A DNA stretch of 64,000 bases from Synechococcus sp. (GCA_047284725.1 JBJBEO010000001.1:32001-96000); one strand, 5' to 3'. Positions 57,169 to 63,768 are shown, numbered from the stretch's first letter. The notes: generated from the sequence alone by a model not told the origin. Numbers and translations: made by a program.

Positions 57169-57272
57169 GGGCTTCTCAAGGGCATCTGGGCTCAGTCTGT
57201 CGTGGTGGCACTACGGCAGGCAGATGGATGGCTTTTGAATAGGAGGTGTGGTTCGTCTTGCCTTCAGCTTCG

Positions 57273-58508
57273 ATGGCGCAATCTGTTCGCTGGACTCCCA
57301 TCGGTGGGGGCATCACCGCTCCTGACGGCTTTCAGGCGGAGGGGCTGACCGCAGGGCTCAAGGCCTCAGGGAAACCCGATTTATCGCTCCTGCTCGCTCC
57401 TGAAGGCGCTGTGTGCGCCGGCACGTTCACCACATCGGTGGTGAGGGCGGCGTGTGTTGATCTCTGTGCAGACCGGTTGCGGGACAGCGGCGGGCTGGCG
57501 CGGGCTGTGGTGACCAATTCCGGACAGGCCAATGCCTGCACGGGCGATCGAGGCCTCATCGACAGCCTGCGGGCGACGCAGGCCGTGGCGGATCGTCTGG
57601 GCCTCCCACCGGAAGCGGTGTTGATCTGTTCCACAGGAGTGATTGGTGTGCCGATTGCCATGGACACCCTTCTGGCGGCTGTGGATCCATTGGTGGAGGG
57701 CCTTGCAACGGACCGAGGTGCTGCAGCTGCAGAGGCCATCCTCACCACTGATCTGGTTGACAAACAGATCGCCCTGGAGGCCGAGTTGGCAGGGCGCAGG
57801 GTCCGTGTGGCCGGGATGGCCAAGGGATCGGGAATGATTCATCCCGACATGGCCACGATGTTGGGCTACCTCACCTGTGATGTCGGCGTGCCTGCGGAGG
57901 TGTGGCAAGCGATGGTGAGCCGGGCGGTGAATCGCTCGTTCAACGCGATCACCGTCGACGGTGATACCAGCACGAACGACACGTTTCTGGCTTTTGCGGC
58001 AGGCGATCCTCTACCAGACACGGCGTTGGAAGGGCTTGAGCAAGGGGTCACGCTTGTGGCTCAACATCTGGCGCGGGCGATCGCCCGCGATGGTGAGGGT
58101 GCAACCTGTTTGATTGAGGTGGACGTGGAGGGGACGGCCAGTGAGTCCGATGCGTTGCAGATGGCACGCACTGTGTGTGGTTCCTCCTTGGTGAAGACCG
58201 CTGTTCATGGTCATGACCCCAACTGGGGGCGCATTGTTGCGGCGGCCGGTCGCGCCGGTGTGCCCTTTGACCCTGCTTCCGTTGCCCTGTGGCTTGGCAC
58301 CCATCAGCTGATGGCCTCAGGCGAGCCCATGGTGTTTGACCGATCCGCCGCCTCGGCGTACCTGCAGGCTTGCGTTGAAGGGGCCTATCTCGAGAATGAC
58401 TGCGTTTGTATTCGTCTCAAGGTGGGTGATGGCCCTGGTCGGGCCAAAGCCTGGGGATGTGATCTTTCGGATCAATATGTGCGCATCAACGCCGATTACA
58501 CCACTTGA
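57273..58508 (+). CDS. argJ: Bifunctional glutamate N-acetyltransferase / amino-acid acetyltransferase
   Basis: NSGQANA, KGSGMIHPDMATML, DTSTND, DGEGAT, DPNWGRI, GCDLS..YVRINADYTT. Confidence 0.97.
   Translation: MAQSVRWTPIGGGITAPDGFQAEGLTAGLKASGKPDLSLLLAPEGAVCAGTFTTSVVRAACVDLCADRLRDSGGLARAVVTNSGQANACTGDRGLIDSLRATQAVADRLGLPPEAVLICSTGVIGVPIAMDTLLAAVDPLVEGLATDRGAAAAEAILTTDLVDKQIALEAELAGRRVRVAGMAKGSGMIHPDMATMLGYLTCDVGVPAEVWQAMVSRAVNRSFNAITVDGDTSTNDTFLAFAAGDPLPDTALEGLEQGVTLVAQHLARAIARDGEGATCLIEVDVEGTASESDALQMARTVCGSSLVKTAVHGHDPNWGRIVAAAGRAGVPFDPASVALWLGTHQLMASGEPMVFDRSAASAYLQACVEGAYLENDCVCIRLKVGDGPGRAKAWGCDLSDQYVRINADYTT
58484..58501 (+). repeat. Left att-like direct repeat (inside the argJ 3' end)
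   Basis: CATCAACGCCGATTACAC; 17/18 identical to 63009-63026. Confidence 0.85.
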
Positions 58509-59642
58509 GGTCCACGTCGTCAGTAGAGCGTTGTGGTTGCGAGAGGGTTGAGAGATTGTCAGAGGGCACATGTAGGGCTGATTGTTCCAGGTGCCTAACG
58601 TAATTTGAGGTATTACGATTCAGTTGATTGGCACAAATGGGTGCAGTGAATGCTCTTTTCAAGGGCTAAGTAGCATGAAAATGCCAGATAGGGTGCTTCC
58701 CTTTTCTTGAGAGGAGGTTGGTTTAATGCTTTGCCTTGATAAGGCAGATAAGAATCGTAAGGAGTGTGGCTGCGGGCACGGATGCGTCAGCGTGAAAGAC
58801 CTTGATGTTTGTGAGATTGGTATCTTTGCGGTGATGCTTATCTTGTGATTGCTCAGCTGCTTTCTGCGCTCTCTCCCAAGGATGTTGATCGGTTTGATTG
58901 CATGTTTCATTAAGCAATGTGCTGATGTTGATCCAGCATCTGTTGTCGATGACGACGGCCACTCCAGGTTGATTGGTCACACACCTGCTGATCTAAAATG
59001 GTGCTGCAAAGGTAAATACAATTACGTAATTCTTGAAGAGTAGAGAAGATGCAAGTGGCTGATCTTCTAGCACTTGTCGAGTTGTCTATGAAGCAGGAAA
59101 ACCAGGAAACTCTGGATCTTGTTGATGACGATGCCGCCAACTTGCACGTCGGTAGATTTCCGATCTTTTTCTGGGCACTGCTTAAGCCACAGGTTGCTGG
59201 TGATCTCCCGATGGGTGGTCGCCGATGACTGTCCAGGTAAGTGTCAAGCAGCAATCACTGATCAAGCAGACCATCCAGAGGATGCCATTGATCACGATCT
59301 CCAACACTTCAAGAAGCATCGGTATCAGATCCGCTGACAACTCAGCGGACAAGAGCACCAACACGGCAGAAAGCGACCTGCCCACAACAGCAGCAGACGA
59401 CTACCTGACGCCTATTGAGAGGTGTCACGGCGCTGCTCTGATCTAACGCCTTCGGCAACGTCAGCAAGAGTCGTTCGAGCGGGGCATCGTTAAGGCAAGA
59501 CGCCTCTGCAACGCAGGTCGCTGAATGAGTTTTCGACGCTTCCGCTCGGTGACGAAGGACTCACTGAATCGCTGGGAGGGGAATGGGGCAGTGAAGCGAG
59601 GAGAGAAGTCACCGTAAAATCGGTACAGGTGAGAGATGCGTT

Positions 59643-60653
59643 GTGAATCAAGAGGAGATGACGCAGCAGGTCCAGGCTGCAGTGCAGGCATATCAGGGCA
59701 AGGATCTTGATCGTGCTGAGGCAATGTTTAAGCAGATTCTTTCTGTTAACGCAAAAGAGCCGACTTCCTTACATCTTCTTGGCTGTATTTATAGTGAGCG
59801 TGGGCAACTGCAGCAGGCTGTTGAGTTCATCCAGGCATCGATTCGAGAAGATGATAGCAACCCAATGCCAATCCTCGATTTGGGGAAGATTCTTTTTATT
59901 GCTGGACAGCATGAGAATGCAGCGGCTGTCTTCCAGGAGTCATTGAAGAGAAACCAGGAGATCCCTGAGGCTTGGTTTTGCTTGGGCAATGCCCTTAAGG
60001 AGATTGTGAAAACAGAAGAAGCCAAACAGGCATATCGACATGCGTTGACATTGAATCCAGCTCATATTGGAGCCGCATCGAACTTGGGATGTCTGCTCGC
60101 CGATGATGGTGAATTGGCAGAAGCCGAGGAATTGCTTTTAAAAGCCTTGGAGCATGCTCCAAATAATGTGTATCTTAGAATTAATTATGGTAAGTTGTTG
60201 TCTGAGAAGGATCAGCATATTACAGCGATTGAGCAGTATCGTTTTGCGCTGTCGCTTGCTCCTCGTTCGTCTGAGCTGCACTACAATTTTGCTGACTCAT
60301 TGAATGAAGAGGGGGAGGTAGAGGAGGCGATCGCAAGTTATCGGAAAGCGATCGAGCTGAAGCCAGATTTTGCAGATGCGTATTTGAATTTGGGTAATGT
60401 GTTGAAAGAAGAGGGAGAGGTAGAGGAAGCGATCGTAAGTTATCGGAAAGCAATCGAACTGAGGCCAGATTTTGCAGATGCGTATCTGAATTTGGATAAT
60501 GTGTTGAAGGAAGAGGGGAAAGCGGTTGAGGCGCGCGAGCTGTTGAAATATGCCTATCAAGCTACGCCTTCTTTAGCAAGCAATCTTGCATTGGTTGCGA
60601 GGATTTCTTCTATGGGACAAGATATTGCTGAATCCATTTTCAACCCTCATTAG
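59643..60653 (+). CDS. Tetratricopeptide repeat protein
   Basis: Serial 34-aa TPR units (e.g. ADAYLNLGNVLKEEGEVEEAIVSYRKAIELRPDF); no catalytic domain seen. Confidence 0.9.
   Translation: MNQEEMTQQVQAAVQAYQGKDLDRAEAMFKQILSVNAKEPTSLHLLGCIYSERGQLQQAVEFIQASIREDDSNPMPILDLGKILFIAGQHENAAAVFQESLKRNQEIPEAWFCLGNALKEIVKTEEAKQAYRHALTLNPAHIGAASNLGCLLADDGELAEAEELLLKALEHAPNNVYLRINYGKLLSEKDQHITAIEQYRFALSLAPRSSELHYNFADSLNEEGEVEEAIASYRKAIELKPDFADAYLNLGNVLKEEGEVEEAIVSYRKAIELRPDFADAYLNLDNVLKEEGKAVEARELLKYAYQATPSLASNLALVARISSMGQDIAESIFNPH
60306..60518 (+). repeat. 102-bp near-identical tandem repeat (TPR unit duplication)
   Basis: Units 60306-60407 and 60408-60509, plus the start of a third (GAAGAGGGG). Confidence 0.9.
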
Positions 60654-61666
60654 GCATTGTGTGACGAGGTCTCTATCAAGGCTATTTCCATATCAATTGA
60701 CTTGATAAGAGCCTTTGTTGTGTCATTTAAGTGGACGCTTAATTGGCTTTTGAGTTTATTTCTTTGGGCTATGTTGGCTTGCTGTAGTGTTTGTATTATG
60801 CTTGATGTCGTGCTCTCGCTAATTCCATGCTTTTGGGTAATTGAACAGAAAAAAGCCACGGGAAGTTTCCTCGAAGTTGAGCCTAAAGGCAGCGCTGGGA
60901 TTGTAAGAGTATTTTGTTTGAGTGATATCTTTTTGTCCGTTGATTCGATTCCTTCTTGGCCGCCTTCTATTCTTATTGTTGGCCCTCTATCGCCTATCTT
61001 GATCTCTGCGGGAAGTGAATATGCGAAGAATTCATGACTTGCAAAGCCATAACTAAAAAACATGTCCATGGGGCTTGTTTTGAGTCTGTATGCATGGAGA
61101 ATTTCATTGGTTGTGCATTCTGTTGGATCGTTTGGTGTTTCTGCTCCAATTCTTGATACTTTGAAGGGGCTTGCGAATGGGCTGTGGTTGACGAGCTCCC
61201 AGATCGGTGCCAAGGCAGATTGATTTTTATATCTTACGTGCCTTGATTCTATAAATCTTTGCAGCGAAATCTGCAGGCTTGGCTTGGACATGAAGGGATC
61301 GTAAGTCCATAGCTTGTTTTCATTAAGGGAGATTTTCACTTCTTCGGGTATTTGATTCATTTCTCTGAGAAACTTTGTTGCCTCTTCTTCTCCGGATTCT
61401 CCCCAGGAAAAGTTTTGATAGTAAGTTTCTATAAACTCTCTTGCTTCTGGCGTGTGGTCGGACTCTGCTTTAAGCCGAAATTCTCCGGAAGTCAGGATGA
61501 CGTCGTCCACTTTTGCCAAAAGATGTGGTGGGCAAAGGATTCGGGGCTTGTCGTTGTTGCCTTCCCTGAATAATCCTCTGCCGTTGTCGCCATCTCGACA
61601 GATCAGATTGTCAACAATTCCGCCTAGCTTGATGAATTCATTTTTGAAATAATCCCAATTGCTCAT
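60650..61666 (-). CDS. Putative SET-domain protein methyltransferase (Rubisco-LSMT/SETD3-like)
   Basis: NGRGLF near the N-terminus, LAPIWELVNHS, then EILHAY...MFFSYGF; start ATG 61666 (MSNWDYF); AT-rich. Confidence 0.65.
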   Translation of the reverse strand: MSNWDYFKNEFIKLGGIVDNLICRDGDNGRGLFREGNNDKPRILCPPHLLAKVDDVILTSGEFRLKAESDHTPEAREFIETYYQNFSWGESGEEEATKFLREMNQIPEEVKISLNENKLWTYDPFMSKPSLQISLQRFIESRHVRYKNQSALAPIWELVNHSPFASPFKVSRIGAETPNDPTECTTNEILHAYRLKTSPMDMFFSYGFASHEFFAYSLPAEIKIGDRGPTIRIEGGQEGIESTDKKISLKQNTLTIPALPLGSTSRKLPVAFFCSITQKHGISESTTSSIIQTLQQANIAQRNKLKSQLSVHLNDTTKALIKSIDMEIALIETSSHNA

Positions 61667-61727
61667 CTTGTAATGCGTGCCTGCCTGGTTTGTCTGAGAG
61701 CTTATGTGAAATCGATGCCAACCTTGC

Positions 61728-62074
61728 TTGGTTGTCGTCACTTTGGCGCCTCGGGCGATCGGCTCTACTCTCCTCGGCAGTCAGGCATCCACGTCCGTAC
61801 CTTTGATGGTCTGATCCACGCTCGTTCTCTCGGGAAGATGGCAGCACTGGTCGTGGTACTACTCATGAGTCTTGCGAGGTTGAGACGGAGCTGATCAGGG
61901 AAAGGACGCTGGATTTTATTGCTCATCGCAAGAGCACTGGCGGATCCCTTGGGGGACGTCCCAGGACCAGTTAGCCAAGAAAAGGTCTGGTGCTTCCCTA
62001 CGGACGTCTTGTGACTCTTACAGAGTGATCCGAGAGAAGACAGGCTTGGTCTCGCCACCATCAGAAGGATCCTG
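61728..62074 (+). pseudogene. Serine recombinase (resolvase/invertase) relic
   Basis: Across frameshifts: LVVVTL-RLGRS, GIHVRTFDGLI, LGKMAALVV.LL.SLA-EVETELIRERT, GGSLGGRP, DSYRVIREKTG-GLATIRRIL (HTH). Internal stop; catalytic-Ser N-terminus absent. Confidence 0.8.
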
Positions 62075-62096
62075 TGGCGTCGGAGGCAGTGACCAT

Positions 62097-62914
62097 TTAG
62101 GTGTCTCCTATCCAGGTTCCCTCCATCCAGTCATTGCCGATGGCTGTCTTCAGGCCTATGCGTTCTGTGGAGAGTTGTCAGTGGCATCCCACGCTCCAAG
62201 ACAAGCGTGATGAAGGTGTGGCTGAAGGAAGACCAGGGGAGAGTTTTCCTGAGTGGTTGTCGATCTTCCTGAGGTTGTTGAAGTCGCCTTCAGGCCACTG
62301 AGCAAGTCCTGCTTCGACCATCGCCTCGAAGTGACCATCTCTTCAAAGGTGATCGCTCAGGGGTTTCCCCGTCTTCCTGTTGGTGAAGAGCAGATTGCTC
62401 TTGGACGTGGGTTGCGTGTTCTTTCTCGGTTGACGACGGTGCGCCACGACTGGTGCTGAGAACTCATGCCAACGACCTGTCTTGGTGTTTTCCGCTGCCA
62501 CCTCGATCGACACCACACATTTTGGTCTTCAGTGCTGAGGGTTGGGTTGGCACTGACGTGTGACCACCTCATCTGACGTCGAGATCCGCATCGTGAGCTC
62601 GAGCATTTGCCTGGGCTCCAGCTGTTGCCTCGCCCGTGCCAACTGCTGATGCCTTTGCCCTTGTTGGGACCCCTGGAGATGGGGTGAAATCCCAAGGGTT
62701 TGCCGTCCTTATTGAATCTGCTGACGCCCTTGCTCCAAGACAGACCTGCTGGTGTCGAACCAGGGATGAACCGATTGGGTTTCTTCAGTGAGAAGCGATG
62801 CCTCTTGCCTCTCTTCTTATTCAGGAAGTCAAGACACCACTTGCCGTGACGCCGCCCATCTCTAAAGACATCAGCGTTGTGAGCACGCCCTCCTTGGAGG
62901 TCGCACCGATTCAC
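62097..62914 (-). pseudogene. Tyrosine recombinase / phage-integrase relic
   Basis: Across frameshifts: QMRWSHV, IEVAAENTKTGRW, LLFTNRKTGKPLS, WSSFSHTFITLVLERGMPL (degenerate YSFRHT box). Internal stop and apparent deletions. Confidence 0.75.
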
Positions 62915-63008
62915 AGCCTTCGTGTTGGCAGCGGCGCTTTTGCTGATACCTCTGAAGTATCGACCTGGAGGACATTGTCTCCAGCACTAGGAAACCTAGA
63001 TACGTATC

Positions 63009-63026
63009 CATCAACGTCGATTACAC
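63009..63026 (+). repeat. Right att-like direct repeat (displaced copy of the argJ 3' end)
   Basis: CATCAACGTCGATTACAC; context reads YVSINVDYTPW versus argJ YVRINADYTT*. Confidence 0.85.
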
Positions 63027-63078
63027 GCCCTGGAAATCACGAAATCCGCCAGGGCAAACCATCAGCAGAGCTGTCAAG

Positions 63079-63768
63079 ATGGCTGCGCTGTTCGATCCCG
63101 TCGCTGTACCCGTGGAGAACCAGCCCCAAGTCGAACACAAGACGAAGCGACGGCCCCAGTTCTGGATCGGTCCGGTGGTGGCCGGTAGTTGTTTCGCTCT
63201 CGGTTTTGGGGTGACGCAGCGATTCTTGGCACTCCAGGGGGGGGAGGCGCCGACGGCTCAGCAAACCTTTGGCGCCCAGCGTTTCCCTGGGCATTCGCTT
63301 GAAAGTCTCACAACGGCTCCTGCAGACACGGAGCGACCTCTGATTGCGGATGTGGCCGCCCGTGAGGCCGAGCTTGCCAAGACCCGACCACCGAAACCCA
63401 AGAAAACAATCGACAAGGCCCAGCAAGAGGCCGCGCGTCTGGCCGATGAGGCTCGACAGCGCCGCGAGAGCACCGCTGCCCTGAGAGCTCCTGTGGTGCC
63501 CGCAGCCGCGGTGACGGTGCTCGATGAGTCTGAGAGCTTGGCTGCGCCTGAACTGCCACCGCAGGCTGAGGAAGAGCAAGCACCGACTGAGATCCAGCCG
63601 CTGCCGGCAGAGCTCCCCTTCCCTGCCCAGGATCCAGTGGCCCCGTTGGCGGTCGAACCCCTTGACGAACCTCCCGTCACCCCCGCAGCACCCATCCCGG
63701 AGGTCACCTCTGCACCGATCCCGGTTCCCTTAGCCGTGCCCGCTCCAGCGGCCCCGCCTGCTCCCTGA
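63079..63768 (+). CDS. Hypothetical membrane-anchored Pro/Ala/Glu-rich protein
   Basis: FWIGPVVAGSCFALGFGVTQR TM, FPG.SL..L, low-complexity tail; GC returns to core level. Confidence 0.75.
   Translation: MAALFDPVAVPVENQPQVEHKTKRRPQFWIGPVVAGSCFALGFGVTQRFLALQGGEAPTAQQTFGAQRFPGHSLESLTTAPADTERPLIADVAAREAELAKTRPPKPKKTIDKAQQEAARLADEARQRRESTAALRAPVVPAAAVTVLDESESLAAPELPPQAEEEQAPTEIQPLPAELPFPAQDPVAPLAVEPLDEPPVTPAAPIPEVTSAPIPVPLAVPAPAAPPAP

Follow-up and report, generated by a model that had tools for sequence, protein, structure and literature searches.

A probable degraded integrative element at the 3′ end of argJ in Synechococcus, and its proposed family of small circular elements that use the same site

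In a 64-kb stretch of DNA from Synechococcus sp. (GCA_047284725.1, JBJBEO010000001.1:32001–96000, hereafter referred to as the window), the gene argJ is followed by an interval of about 4.5 kb whose borders, composition and gene remains set it apart from its surroundings. I propose that this interval, at positions 58509–63035, is very probably a degraded site-specific integrative element, belonging to a family of small circles that take the 3′ end of argJ, a protein-coding gene, as their attachment (att) site; the assignment is made from sequence alone. An argJ-targeting element family had been put forward in an earlier reading of the window (the original prediction), and it is now supported by empty sites in relatives, by variable cargo, by the link between an integrase gene and one att site, and by circular contigs. 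In what follows, G-numbers designate genomes and L-numbers designate fetched loci or contigs. The features that carry the argument are these:

57246–58508, plus strand: argJ (ornithine acetyltransferase / glutamate N-acetyltransferase), intact; open reading frame (ORF) of 420 amino acids (aa), Pfam ArgJ E = 4.4e-136
58475–58508, plus strand: attL, a putative hybrid core with the last 11 argJ codons and stop (YVRINADYTT-TGA), identified from the repeat and from shuffles
62170–62947, minus strand: tyrosine integrase relic facing inward from attR, identified by tblastn with the intact 538-aa integrase of G025
63000–63035, plus strand: attR, with codons that appear to be the element's mimic (YVS) and a probable displaced, decayed host argJ end (INVDYTP, stop changed to TGG)
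63079–63768, plus strand: conserved downstream gene of 229 aa without a family, found directly after argJ in empty-site genomes

The original prediction stated that the last codons of argJ recur about 4.5 kb further on with one mismatch, and a match search combined with shuffles bears this out. The 18-mer CATCAACGCCGATTACAC is located at 58484–58501, and its second copy, with the single mismatch, at 63009–63026. Allowing up to two mismatches, these two copies are the only matches on either strand of the window, and none of 100 dinucleotide-preserving shuffles gave any match to the 18-mer (mean 0.00). Ungapped extension lengthens the repeat to 27 nt with 81% identity (58475–58501 versus 63000–63026), and the insertion is bounded by direct repeats of the end of its target (attL and attR, 58475–58508 versus 63000–63035). 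The left copy reads TAT GTG CGC ATC AAC GCC GAT TAC ACC ACT TGA, which corresponds to YVRINADYTT-stop, and the right copy reads TAC GTA TCC ATC AAC GTC GAT TAC ACG CCC TGG, which corresponds to YVSINVDYTPW, as previously written. Relative to attL, 5 of 27 positions are changed in attR, among them a GCC to GTC change within the segment where the crossover is placed below. The perfect 32-nt repeat on either side of the G004 element has the sequence of attL. The former stop position of the right copy lies 43 nt before the gene at 63079, and this is the same geometry as in empty sites.

Despite the insertion, the argJ ORF is complete: the Pfam ArgJ match extends to the final model position (377/377) at residue 420, which is the last residue, and the gene has thus survived whole, with terminal codons that the element would now provide. 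The DNA between the copies is AT-richer, as had been claimed, with a GC content of 0.491 versus 0.615 in the rest of the window; measured over 400 nt at a time, the values are 0.41–0.56 inside and 0.60–0.68 outside. No tRNA or tmRNA gene was found in the 64-kb window.

Both occupied and unoccupied forms of this junction are present in the genus. A protein search of 46 genus genomes identified argJ in 42, and with G033 and G043 dropped (fragments only), 40 were left, including the window's genome. In 29 of these 40 the attB site is unoccupied, with a homologue of the 63079–63768 gene beginning 17–52 nt past the argJ stop; the closest relatives of the window's genome, G005 and G044, have empty sites. 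Ten are occupied, namely the window's genome, eight more that carry 2.9–9.1 kb at the junction (GC 0.41–0.48, with differing genes), and G039, which is split on two contigs, one with argJ and an element-type arm, the other with a core copy and the start of the integrase. The contig of G031 ends 957 nt after argJ, and its site was counted neither as empty nor as occupied. A direct repeat of the argJ end, 27–34 nt in length, is found at the far border in five of the eight further occupied genomes (G021, G006, G024, G025 and G004), and is perfect over 32 nt in G004. The relatives therefore hold the empty sites and the other cargo between the same repeats that the original prediction had proposed to look for, and its description of the site as a cargo hotspot agrees with these counts.

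An integrase gene adjoins one of the att sites. In G025, G006 and G024, intact integrase ORFs of 538–550 aa face inward from the right repeat; these match the catalytic-domain model Phage_integrase of Pfam (PF00589) at 27.0–32.2 bits, for a cut-off of 27.1, and PHROG 1, annotated 'integrase', with E-values of 2e-17 to 8e-26. The relic beside attR in the window is homologous to these intact proteins, and aligns to the G025 integrase as residues 21–91, 268–373, 307–494 and 461–486, in three frames (tblastn). About 176 codons (residues 92–267) are deleted, and there are at least two frameshifts. No match is found past residue 494 of the G025 integrase; the relic therefore lacks the stretch in which alignment A1 has its invariant HYFHY block. 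The integrase copy of G004 is broken, as it is in the window. An integrase relic had originally been placed about 95 bp inside the right copy; the relic is real, and its longest ORF (62357–62914) starts 86 nt to the left of that copy, near the distance first given, but the tblastn span of 62170–62947 means that integrase homology begins nearer, 53 nt to its left.

Within the genus, this integrase lineage is found at argJ loci only, short C-terminal fragments elsewhere excepted, and the same association is seen in larger collections. One metagenome scan provided 69 distinct loci from the best 80 of 175 confirmed matches, and all metagenome counts given here rest on these. For the 39 loci that extend 250 nt or more beyond the projected integrase start, I searched the upstream DNA for the motif ATCAAYGCCGAYTAYAC, allowing up to three mismatches; 38 of them have it, on the opposite strand, at a distance of 51–187 nt from that start. 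When 401 genomes of the host family were searched with a profile, the integrase was identified in 30, from 8 of 64 genera, and the motif is found upstream in all 21 of the loci that cover the integrase start. Intact integrases next to an argJ-end copy had been named as a thing to look for in the original prediction, and such pairs are seen in G025, G006 and G024 as well as at these metagenome and family-genome loci.

Five further matches were found in records titled Synechococcus sp. RCC307, two Prochlorococcus single-cell genomes, Cyanobium usitatum, and one Synechococcus metagenome-assembled genome. In the RCC307 record (L160:2273–5871), two argJ-end copies 3.6 kb apart flank one apparently intact integrase; this is the smallest integrated member seen, and would be a convenient cultured model. 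By tblastn, the integrase has no relative in PLSDB plasmids or in INPHARED (50,697 phage records), and a comparison of the integrase alignment to IMG/VR gave 265 pattern matches, with no relative among them.

A separate observation concerns the end of the integrase gene. A piece of ∼150 nt, coding for the last ∼50 residues and the stop of the argJ integrase family (58–74% aa identity), occurs at unrelated chromosomal places: L050 (G018:C18), L052 (G010), L053 (G034), L057 (a second locus of G024), L154 and L157–L159. The flanks of these pieces are dissimilar, with no tRNA nearby. They could be scars of lost elements, or mark a secondary attachment site in the 3′ end of the integrase gene.

Members of the family are also found as circular contigs. 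In 8 of the 69 metagenome contigs the two ends overlap exactly, by 123 or 127 nt, as is usual when a k-mer assembly follows a circular path; the units measure 4727–8773 bp, and these circular forms come from both marine and freshwater metagenomes. L104 and L110, and likewise L116 and L117, are mutual circular permutations with 99.96–100% identity. The circle L104 is 95% identical over 4.1 kb to the integrated element of G006, and its junction consists of the P arm, the core TACGTTTGCATCAATGCCGATTATACTACGTAA and the P′ arm. In G006, attL is composed of argJ, the core and the P′ arm as in L104, and attR is composed of the P arm as in L104, the core and the downstream DNA of the host; in this one element type, the arms of attP are those of attL and attR. 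A candidate for the excised circle looked for in the original prediction is provided for family members by the eight circular contigs, which tandem arrays could imitate, and by the matching arms of L104 and G006; none was found in the contigs for the window's copy. The L104/G006 core is flanked by three copies of a 23-nt unit with paired GTTACC half-sites, of which two lie towards the integrase and the third on the opposite flank; these units look like putative arm-type binding sites. The window's own arms share one 9-mer (58527 and 62873), versus 0.4 shared 8-mers in shuffles, too weak to identify arm-type repeats there.

The circular attPs all encode INADYTT-stop, and only synonymous positions vary. 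The three codons before INADYTT differ among attPs, reading YVC, YVR, YVS or YGS, and L107 has an in-frame TAG there; because these codons vary, I place the crossover at or after the Ile codon. The attL hybrids of G006 and G024 carry the variants of the element from GAT TAT onward. Taken together, these two bounds suggest that crossover takes place within ATCAAYGCCGA. This would explain the right copy of the window, in which YVS would be the element mimic and INVDYTPW the displaced, decayed host end. The right copy is indeed a copy of the argJ end, as first claimed, but its YVS codons would then be the element's own imperfect mimic rather than decayed argJ, and YVS is also read in the circles L114, L113 and L120.

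In the mechanism that I propose, the family would exist as a circle of 4.7–8.8 kb, with an inward-facing tyrosine integrase, usually a small serine recombinase, and an attP that copies the argJ end. The integrase would recombine attP with the argJ 3′ end (attB), with the crossover inside ATCAAYGCCGA. As a result argJ would be resealed with terminal codons coded by the element, and would stay functional, whereas the original host end would be pushed to the far border (attR), adjoining the integrase gene. The window's copy would have arrived in this manner; its integrase has since lost ∼176 codons and its frame, its resolvase has been truncated and its attR mutated, and this damage would have locked the element in. 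Its cargo, a gene for a TPR-repeat protein and one for a 363-aa protein (listed below), would now be fixed island DNA.

A second integrase lineage is found at the argJ end. The element of G021 encodes a 455-aa integrase that is only 24% identical to the others, located at the argJ-proximal end and reading in the direction of argJ. Integrases of this type were found in 7 of the 401 family genomes, at 8 loci: the five closest (59–100% identity) immediately follow a full-length argJ; two that are more distant have the motif just upstream, and one of these two belongs to G076, where it forms the second member of a tandem pair; the last is cut by a contig end. In that pair, G021-type integrases (L168 and L172, G076:C1:78270–79637 and 84318–85613) lie 6 kb apart downstream of one argJ, with an argJ-end copy before each, as a tandem array that arose when integration took place more than once.

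The gene content of the circles was analysed with Pfam on 48 ORFs of seven circular contigs. The integrase is present as a whole ORF in six of the seven, and spans the contig ends in L124; it is directly followed by a small serine recombinase in four. A DruA-like protein (PF14236) of ∼300 aa is encoded by three (L107:3138–4046, L114:5621–6544 and L116:1642–2541; E-values 1.6e-15 to 5.6e-22), and also by five further loci. The DruA-like ORFs match no PADLOC model at 1e-4, and this protein may be a hallmark gene of the elements, not defence cargo. A type II restriction-modification pair, composed of a MunI-family endonuclease and an MT-A70 methyltransferase, is located at L107:1657–3063, and apart from this pair a search of the integrase neighbours with NCBIfam and PADLOC gave nothing. 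No replication (primase, helicase, polymerase), conjugation or capsid family was identified by Pfam among the 48 ORFs, many of which have no family, and no capsid, terminase or packaging gene was found either in Pfam for these ORFs or in the PHROG subsets scanned. Three ORFs without assigned function (263, 147 and 307 aa) are common to G006, G024 and the circles L104, L108 and L124.

Elements of a comparable kind have been described in the same hosts. In marine Synechococcus, tycheposon-like insertions at tRNA-Phe(GAA) have their tyrosine recombinase at the distal end, encode TnpR-like resolvases and retain a target remnant (Grebert et al. 2022, PMC8995045). The tycheposons of Prochlorococcus use seven tRNA or tmRNA genes as sites, and have as hallmark genes a primase, a helicase, a polymerase, an excisionase and a small serine recombinase (Hackl et al., preprint 10.1101/2020.12.28.424599). 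The argJ elements resemble these in their picocyanobacterial hosts and in the inward-facing tyrosine recombinase at one end (distal in Synechococcus, as here); small serine recombinases (TnpR-like), TPR genes, variable low-GC cargo, a target-gene remnant between the recombinase and host DNA, a recurrent site and degenerate relics are also common to them and the tycheposon-like insertions. Unlike tycheposons, the argJ elements use a protein-coding gene, at its 3′ end, and not a tRNA or tmRNA gene as their att site, and the circles have no primase, helicase or polymerase family among the 48 ORFs; the small serine recombinase is present in four of seven circles, and as a relic in the window. The argJ-linked integrases are long (486–550 aa) and barely at the Pfam cut-off, and they are set beside the tycheposon recombinases by description only. 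For this reason, and since the target is not a tRNA gene, I refer to the element as tycheposon-like in mode, and not as a member of that group.

In E. coli, the lambdoid phage 21 and the e14 element use a tyrosine integrase to insert at the 3′ end of icd, and in streptococci the 3′ ends of fda, rpmG, rpsI and rplL are targets of integrative and conjugative elements (ICEs) and integrative and mobilizable elements (IMEs). Like phage 21 and e14, the argJ elements target the 3′ end of a metabolic gene, keep this gene intact by means of a near-copy, and leave the displaced end as a far pseudo-copy. They differ from these enterobacterial prophages or remnants in having circles of 4.7–8.8 kb with no recognisable phage genes, and in being found in cyanobacteria. 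A conserved protein-coding 3′ end, its synonymous duplicate, tandem accretion and integrase-less relics are shared with the streptococcal ICEs and IMEs, but the relaxase/conjugation modules of the latter were not seen by Pfam in the circle ORFs. No literature linking argJ to an attachment site or to an integrase was found; the lists of 'non-tRNA-associated' recombinases in the tycheposon work were outside the scope of this search, and may name argJ. The mechanism is known in kind, and the argJ site and its element family are apparently undescribed.

That the window's copy is now immobile, as had been predicted, is a well-supported reading of its broken integrase and resolvase, its decayed attR, and a genome in which no other member of either argJ-linked integrase lineage was found. 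The genome does contain six further matches to the Pfam Phage_integrase model. The whole island is present in single contigs, with 10 differences, in three runs that belong to one study. Neither a joint nor an empty-site form appears in the contigs X1–X4; rare variants would not be visible in contigs, and the absence of a joint is therefore uninformative on rare excision.

A number of points speak against this account of the element and its family. The integration is proposed from the comparison of sequences. Seven ORF fragments of the integrase relic gave no integrase match in Pfam, none of them matching the model on its own, and a whole-genome PF00589 scan also misses the relic. The motif is absent from L119 despite 330 nt upstream, the single exception in the metagenome set. 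Among the occupied genus genomes, G026 and G023 have no att repeat at their right borders, as judged by a local alignment search, and G007 has a degenerate att remnant only; all three are without an integrase, and some cargo at this site may therefore have come, or have been reshaped, otherwise. Concatemers, or integrated copies arranged in tandem like those of G076, could also give rise to the circular contigs. The pairs L104/L110 and L116/L117 may be re-assemblies of related samples, and so maybe not independent. Finally, no circle, empty-site allele or joint was found for the window's own element in the single contigs of the three runs, and contigs miss rare forms.

It is possible, if unlikely, that the island came by homologous recombination of its flanks (argJ and the downstream gene) from a donor that carried the element, the integration itself having taken place elsewhere. 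The cargo has no nucleotide similarity to other collected elements, the closest relatives G005 and G044 are empty, the element is old enough to have decayed, and a near-identical copy with 10 differences is found in the three runs, all of which would fit such a transfer. However, there is no pointer to a recombination tract in the flanks, for which no dedicated test was made, and this explanation alters only the place of integration and not the nature of the element. I regard as improbable that the interval is a remnant of a phage satellite, or of a prophage packaged by a helper phage, and not a tycheposon-like cargo element. Passages of the tycheposon preprint do report relatives that resemble phage-inducible chromosomal islands (PICI-like; 10.1101/2020.12.28.424599), and the elements at argJ are small, with the integrase at one end and many ORFs without assigned function, but the circular contigs provided no capsid, terminase or replication family, in Pfam or in the PHROG subsets, and the integrase is without a relative among the phage records or in IMG/VR.

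Mobility of the window's element through another integrase acting in trans seems very improbable. While both att copies are recognisable, and six other Phage_integrase matches are present in the genome, none of these belongs to either argJ-linked lineage, and the attR differences include the GCC to GTC change in the proposed crossover segment; the lack of a joint in three strain-level assemblies points the same way, as weak evidence. The notion of a chance repeat next to an unrelated AT-rich island could appeal to several other imperfect repeats of 19–25 nt within the same 7 kb, but it is scarcely credible, since none of the 100 shuffles produced a match and the right copy occupies the attR position of intact relatives, beside the integrase relic and at a distance of 43 nt from the downstream gene, a spacing like that of empty sites. 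I have rejected it on the basis of the shuffles, the att repeats of relatives, the 38 of 39 loci with the motif, and the junctions of L104 and G006.

Marine picocyanobacteria are not known to conjugate and most are not known to be competent, and the formation of genomic islands in these bacteria has therefore been largely ascribed to, and is largely explained by, tycheposons that target tRNA genes. I give about even chances to the broader proposal that the argJ 3′ end is a hotspot similar to a tRNA gene across picocyanobacteria, used by small circles whose coding-constrained attP rebuilds the last seven residues of ArgJ, and that a second lineage has converged on the same ∼30-nt site. The end of a protein-coding gene would then be in a role otherwise played by tRNA genes, and if the coding constraint is true, the attP of the argJ elements would clearly exemplify selection on a mobile element to preserve the function of the gene that it targets. 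The minimal integrase and attP pairs, with a natural circle of 4.7 kb, are a candidate chassis for site-specific integration in hosts with poor genetic tools, and Synechococcus, Cyanobium and Prochlorococcus all have the argJ target in conserved form. By itself, the copy in the window is an ordinary fossil; what gives it value is the family that was reached from it.

The remaining features of the ∼4.5-kb interval, of which the leftmost ∼1.1 kb is without a convincing gene, are as follows:

58509–61756, no strand assigned: cargo region of low GC (0.41–0.56), with no nucleotide similarity to other collected elements
59643–60653, plus strand: cargo gene for a 336-aa TPR-repeat protein (Pfam TPR families, E down to 1.6e-43)
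60650–61741, minus strand: cargo gene for a 363-aa protein, with no family in Pfam, NCBIfam, PHROG or PADLOC
61757–61995, plus strand: remains of a small serine recombinase (resolvase) gene, reduced to the C-terminal part and split between two frames (tblastn)

The resolvase relic corresponds to residues ∼85–164 of 199 in the resolvases of G025, G004 and L115, with 42–63% identity and E-values down to 2e-16 (tblastn). In the TPR gene, a 102-nt unit is tandemly duplicated with 85% identity at positions 60285–60488 of the window, where there are three TPR-length repeats; this duplication is a recent internal repeat expansion. For the 363-aa protein, the ESM Atlas gave a weak SET-domain-like lead (0.92–0.93). 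Paralogues of this protein, with 28–34% identity, are found in 7 of the 45 other genus genomes, and the window's genome has one at another locus. A paralogue in this same genome (34% identity) lies outside the window, ∼3 kb from another Pfam Phage_integrase match (G000:C1:316461–317435 and 320144–320653), and this protein family may travel with integrative elements generally.

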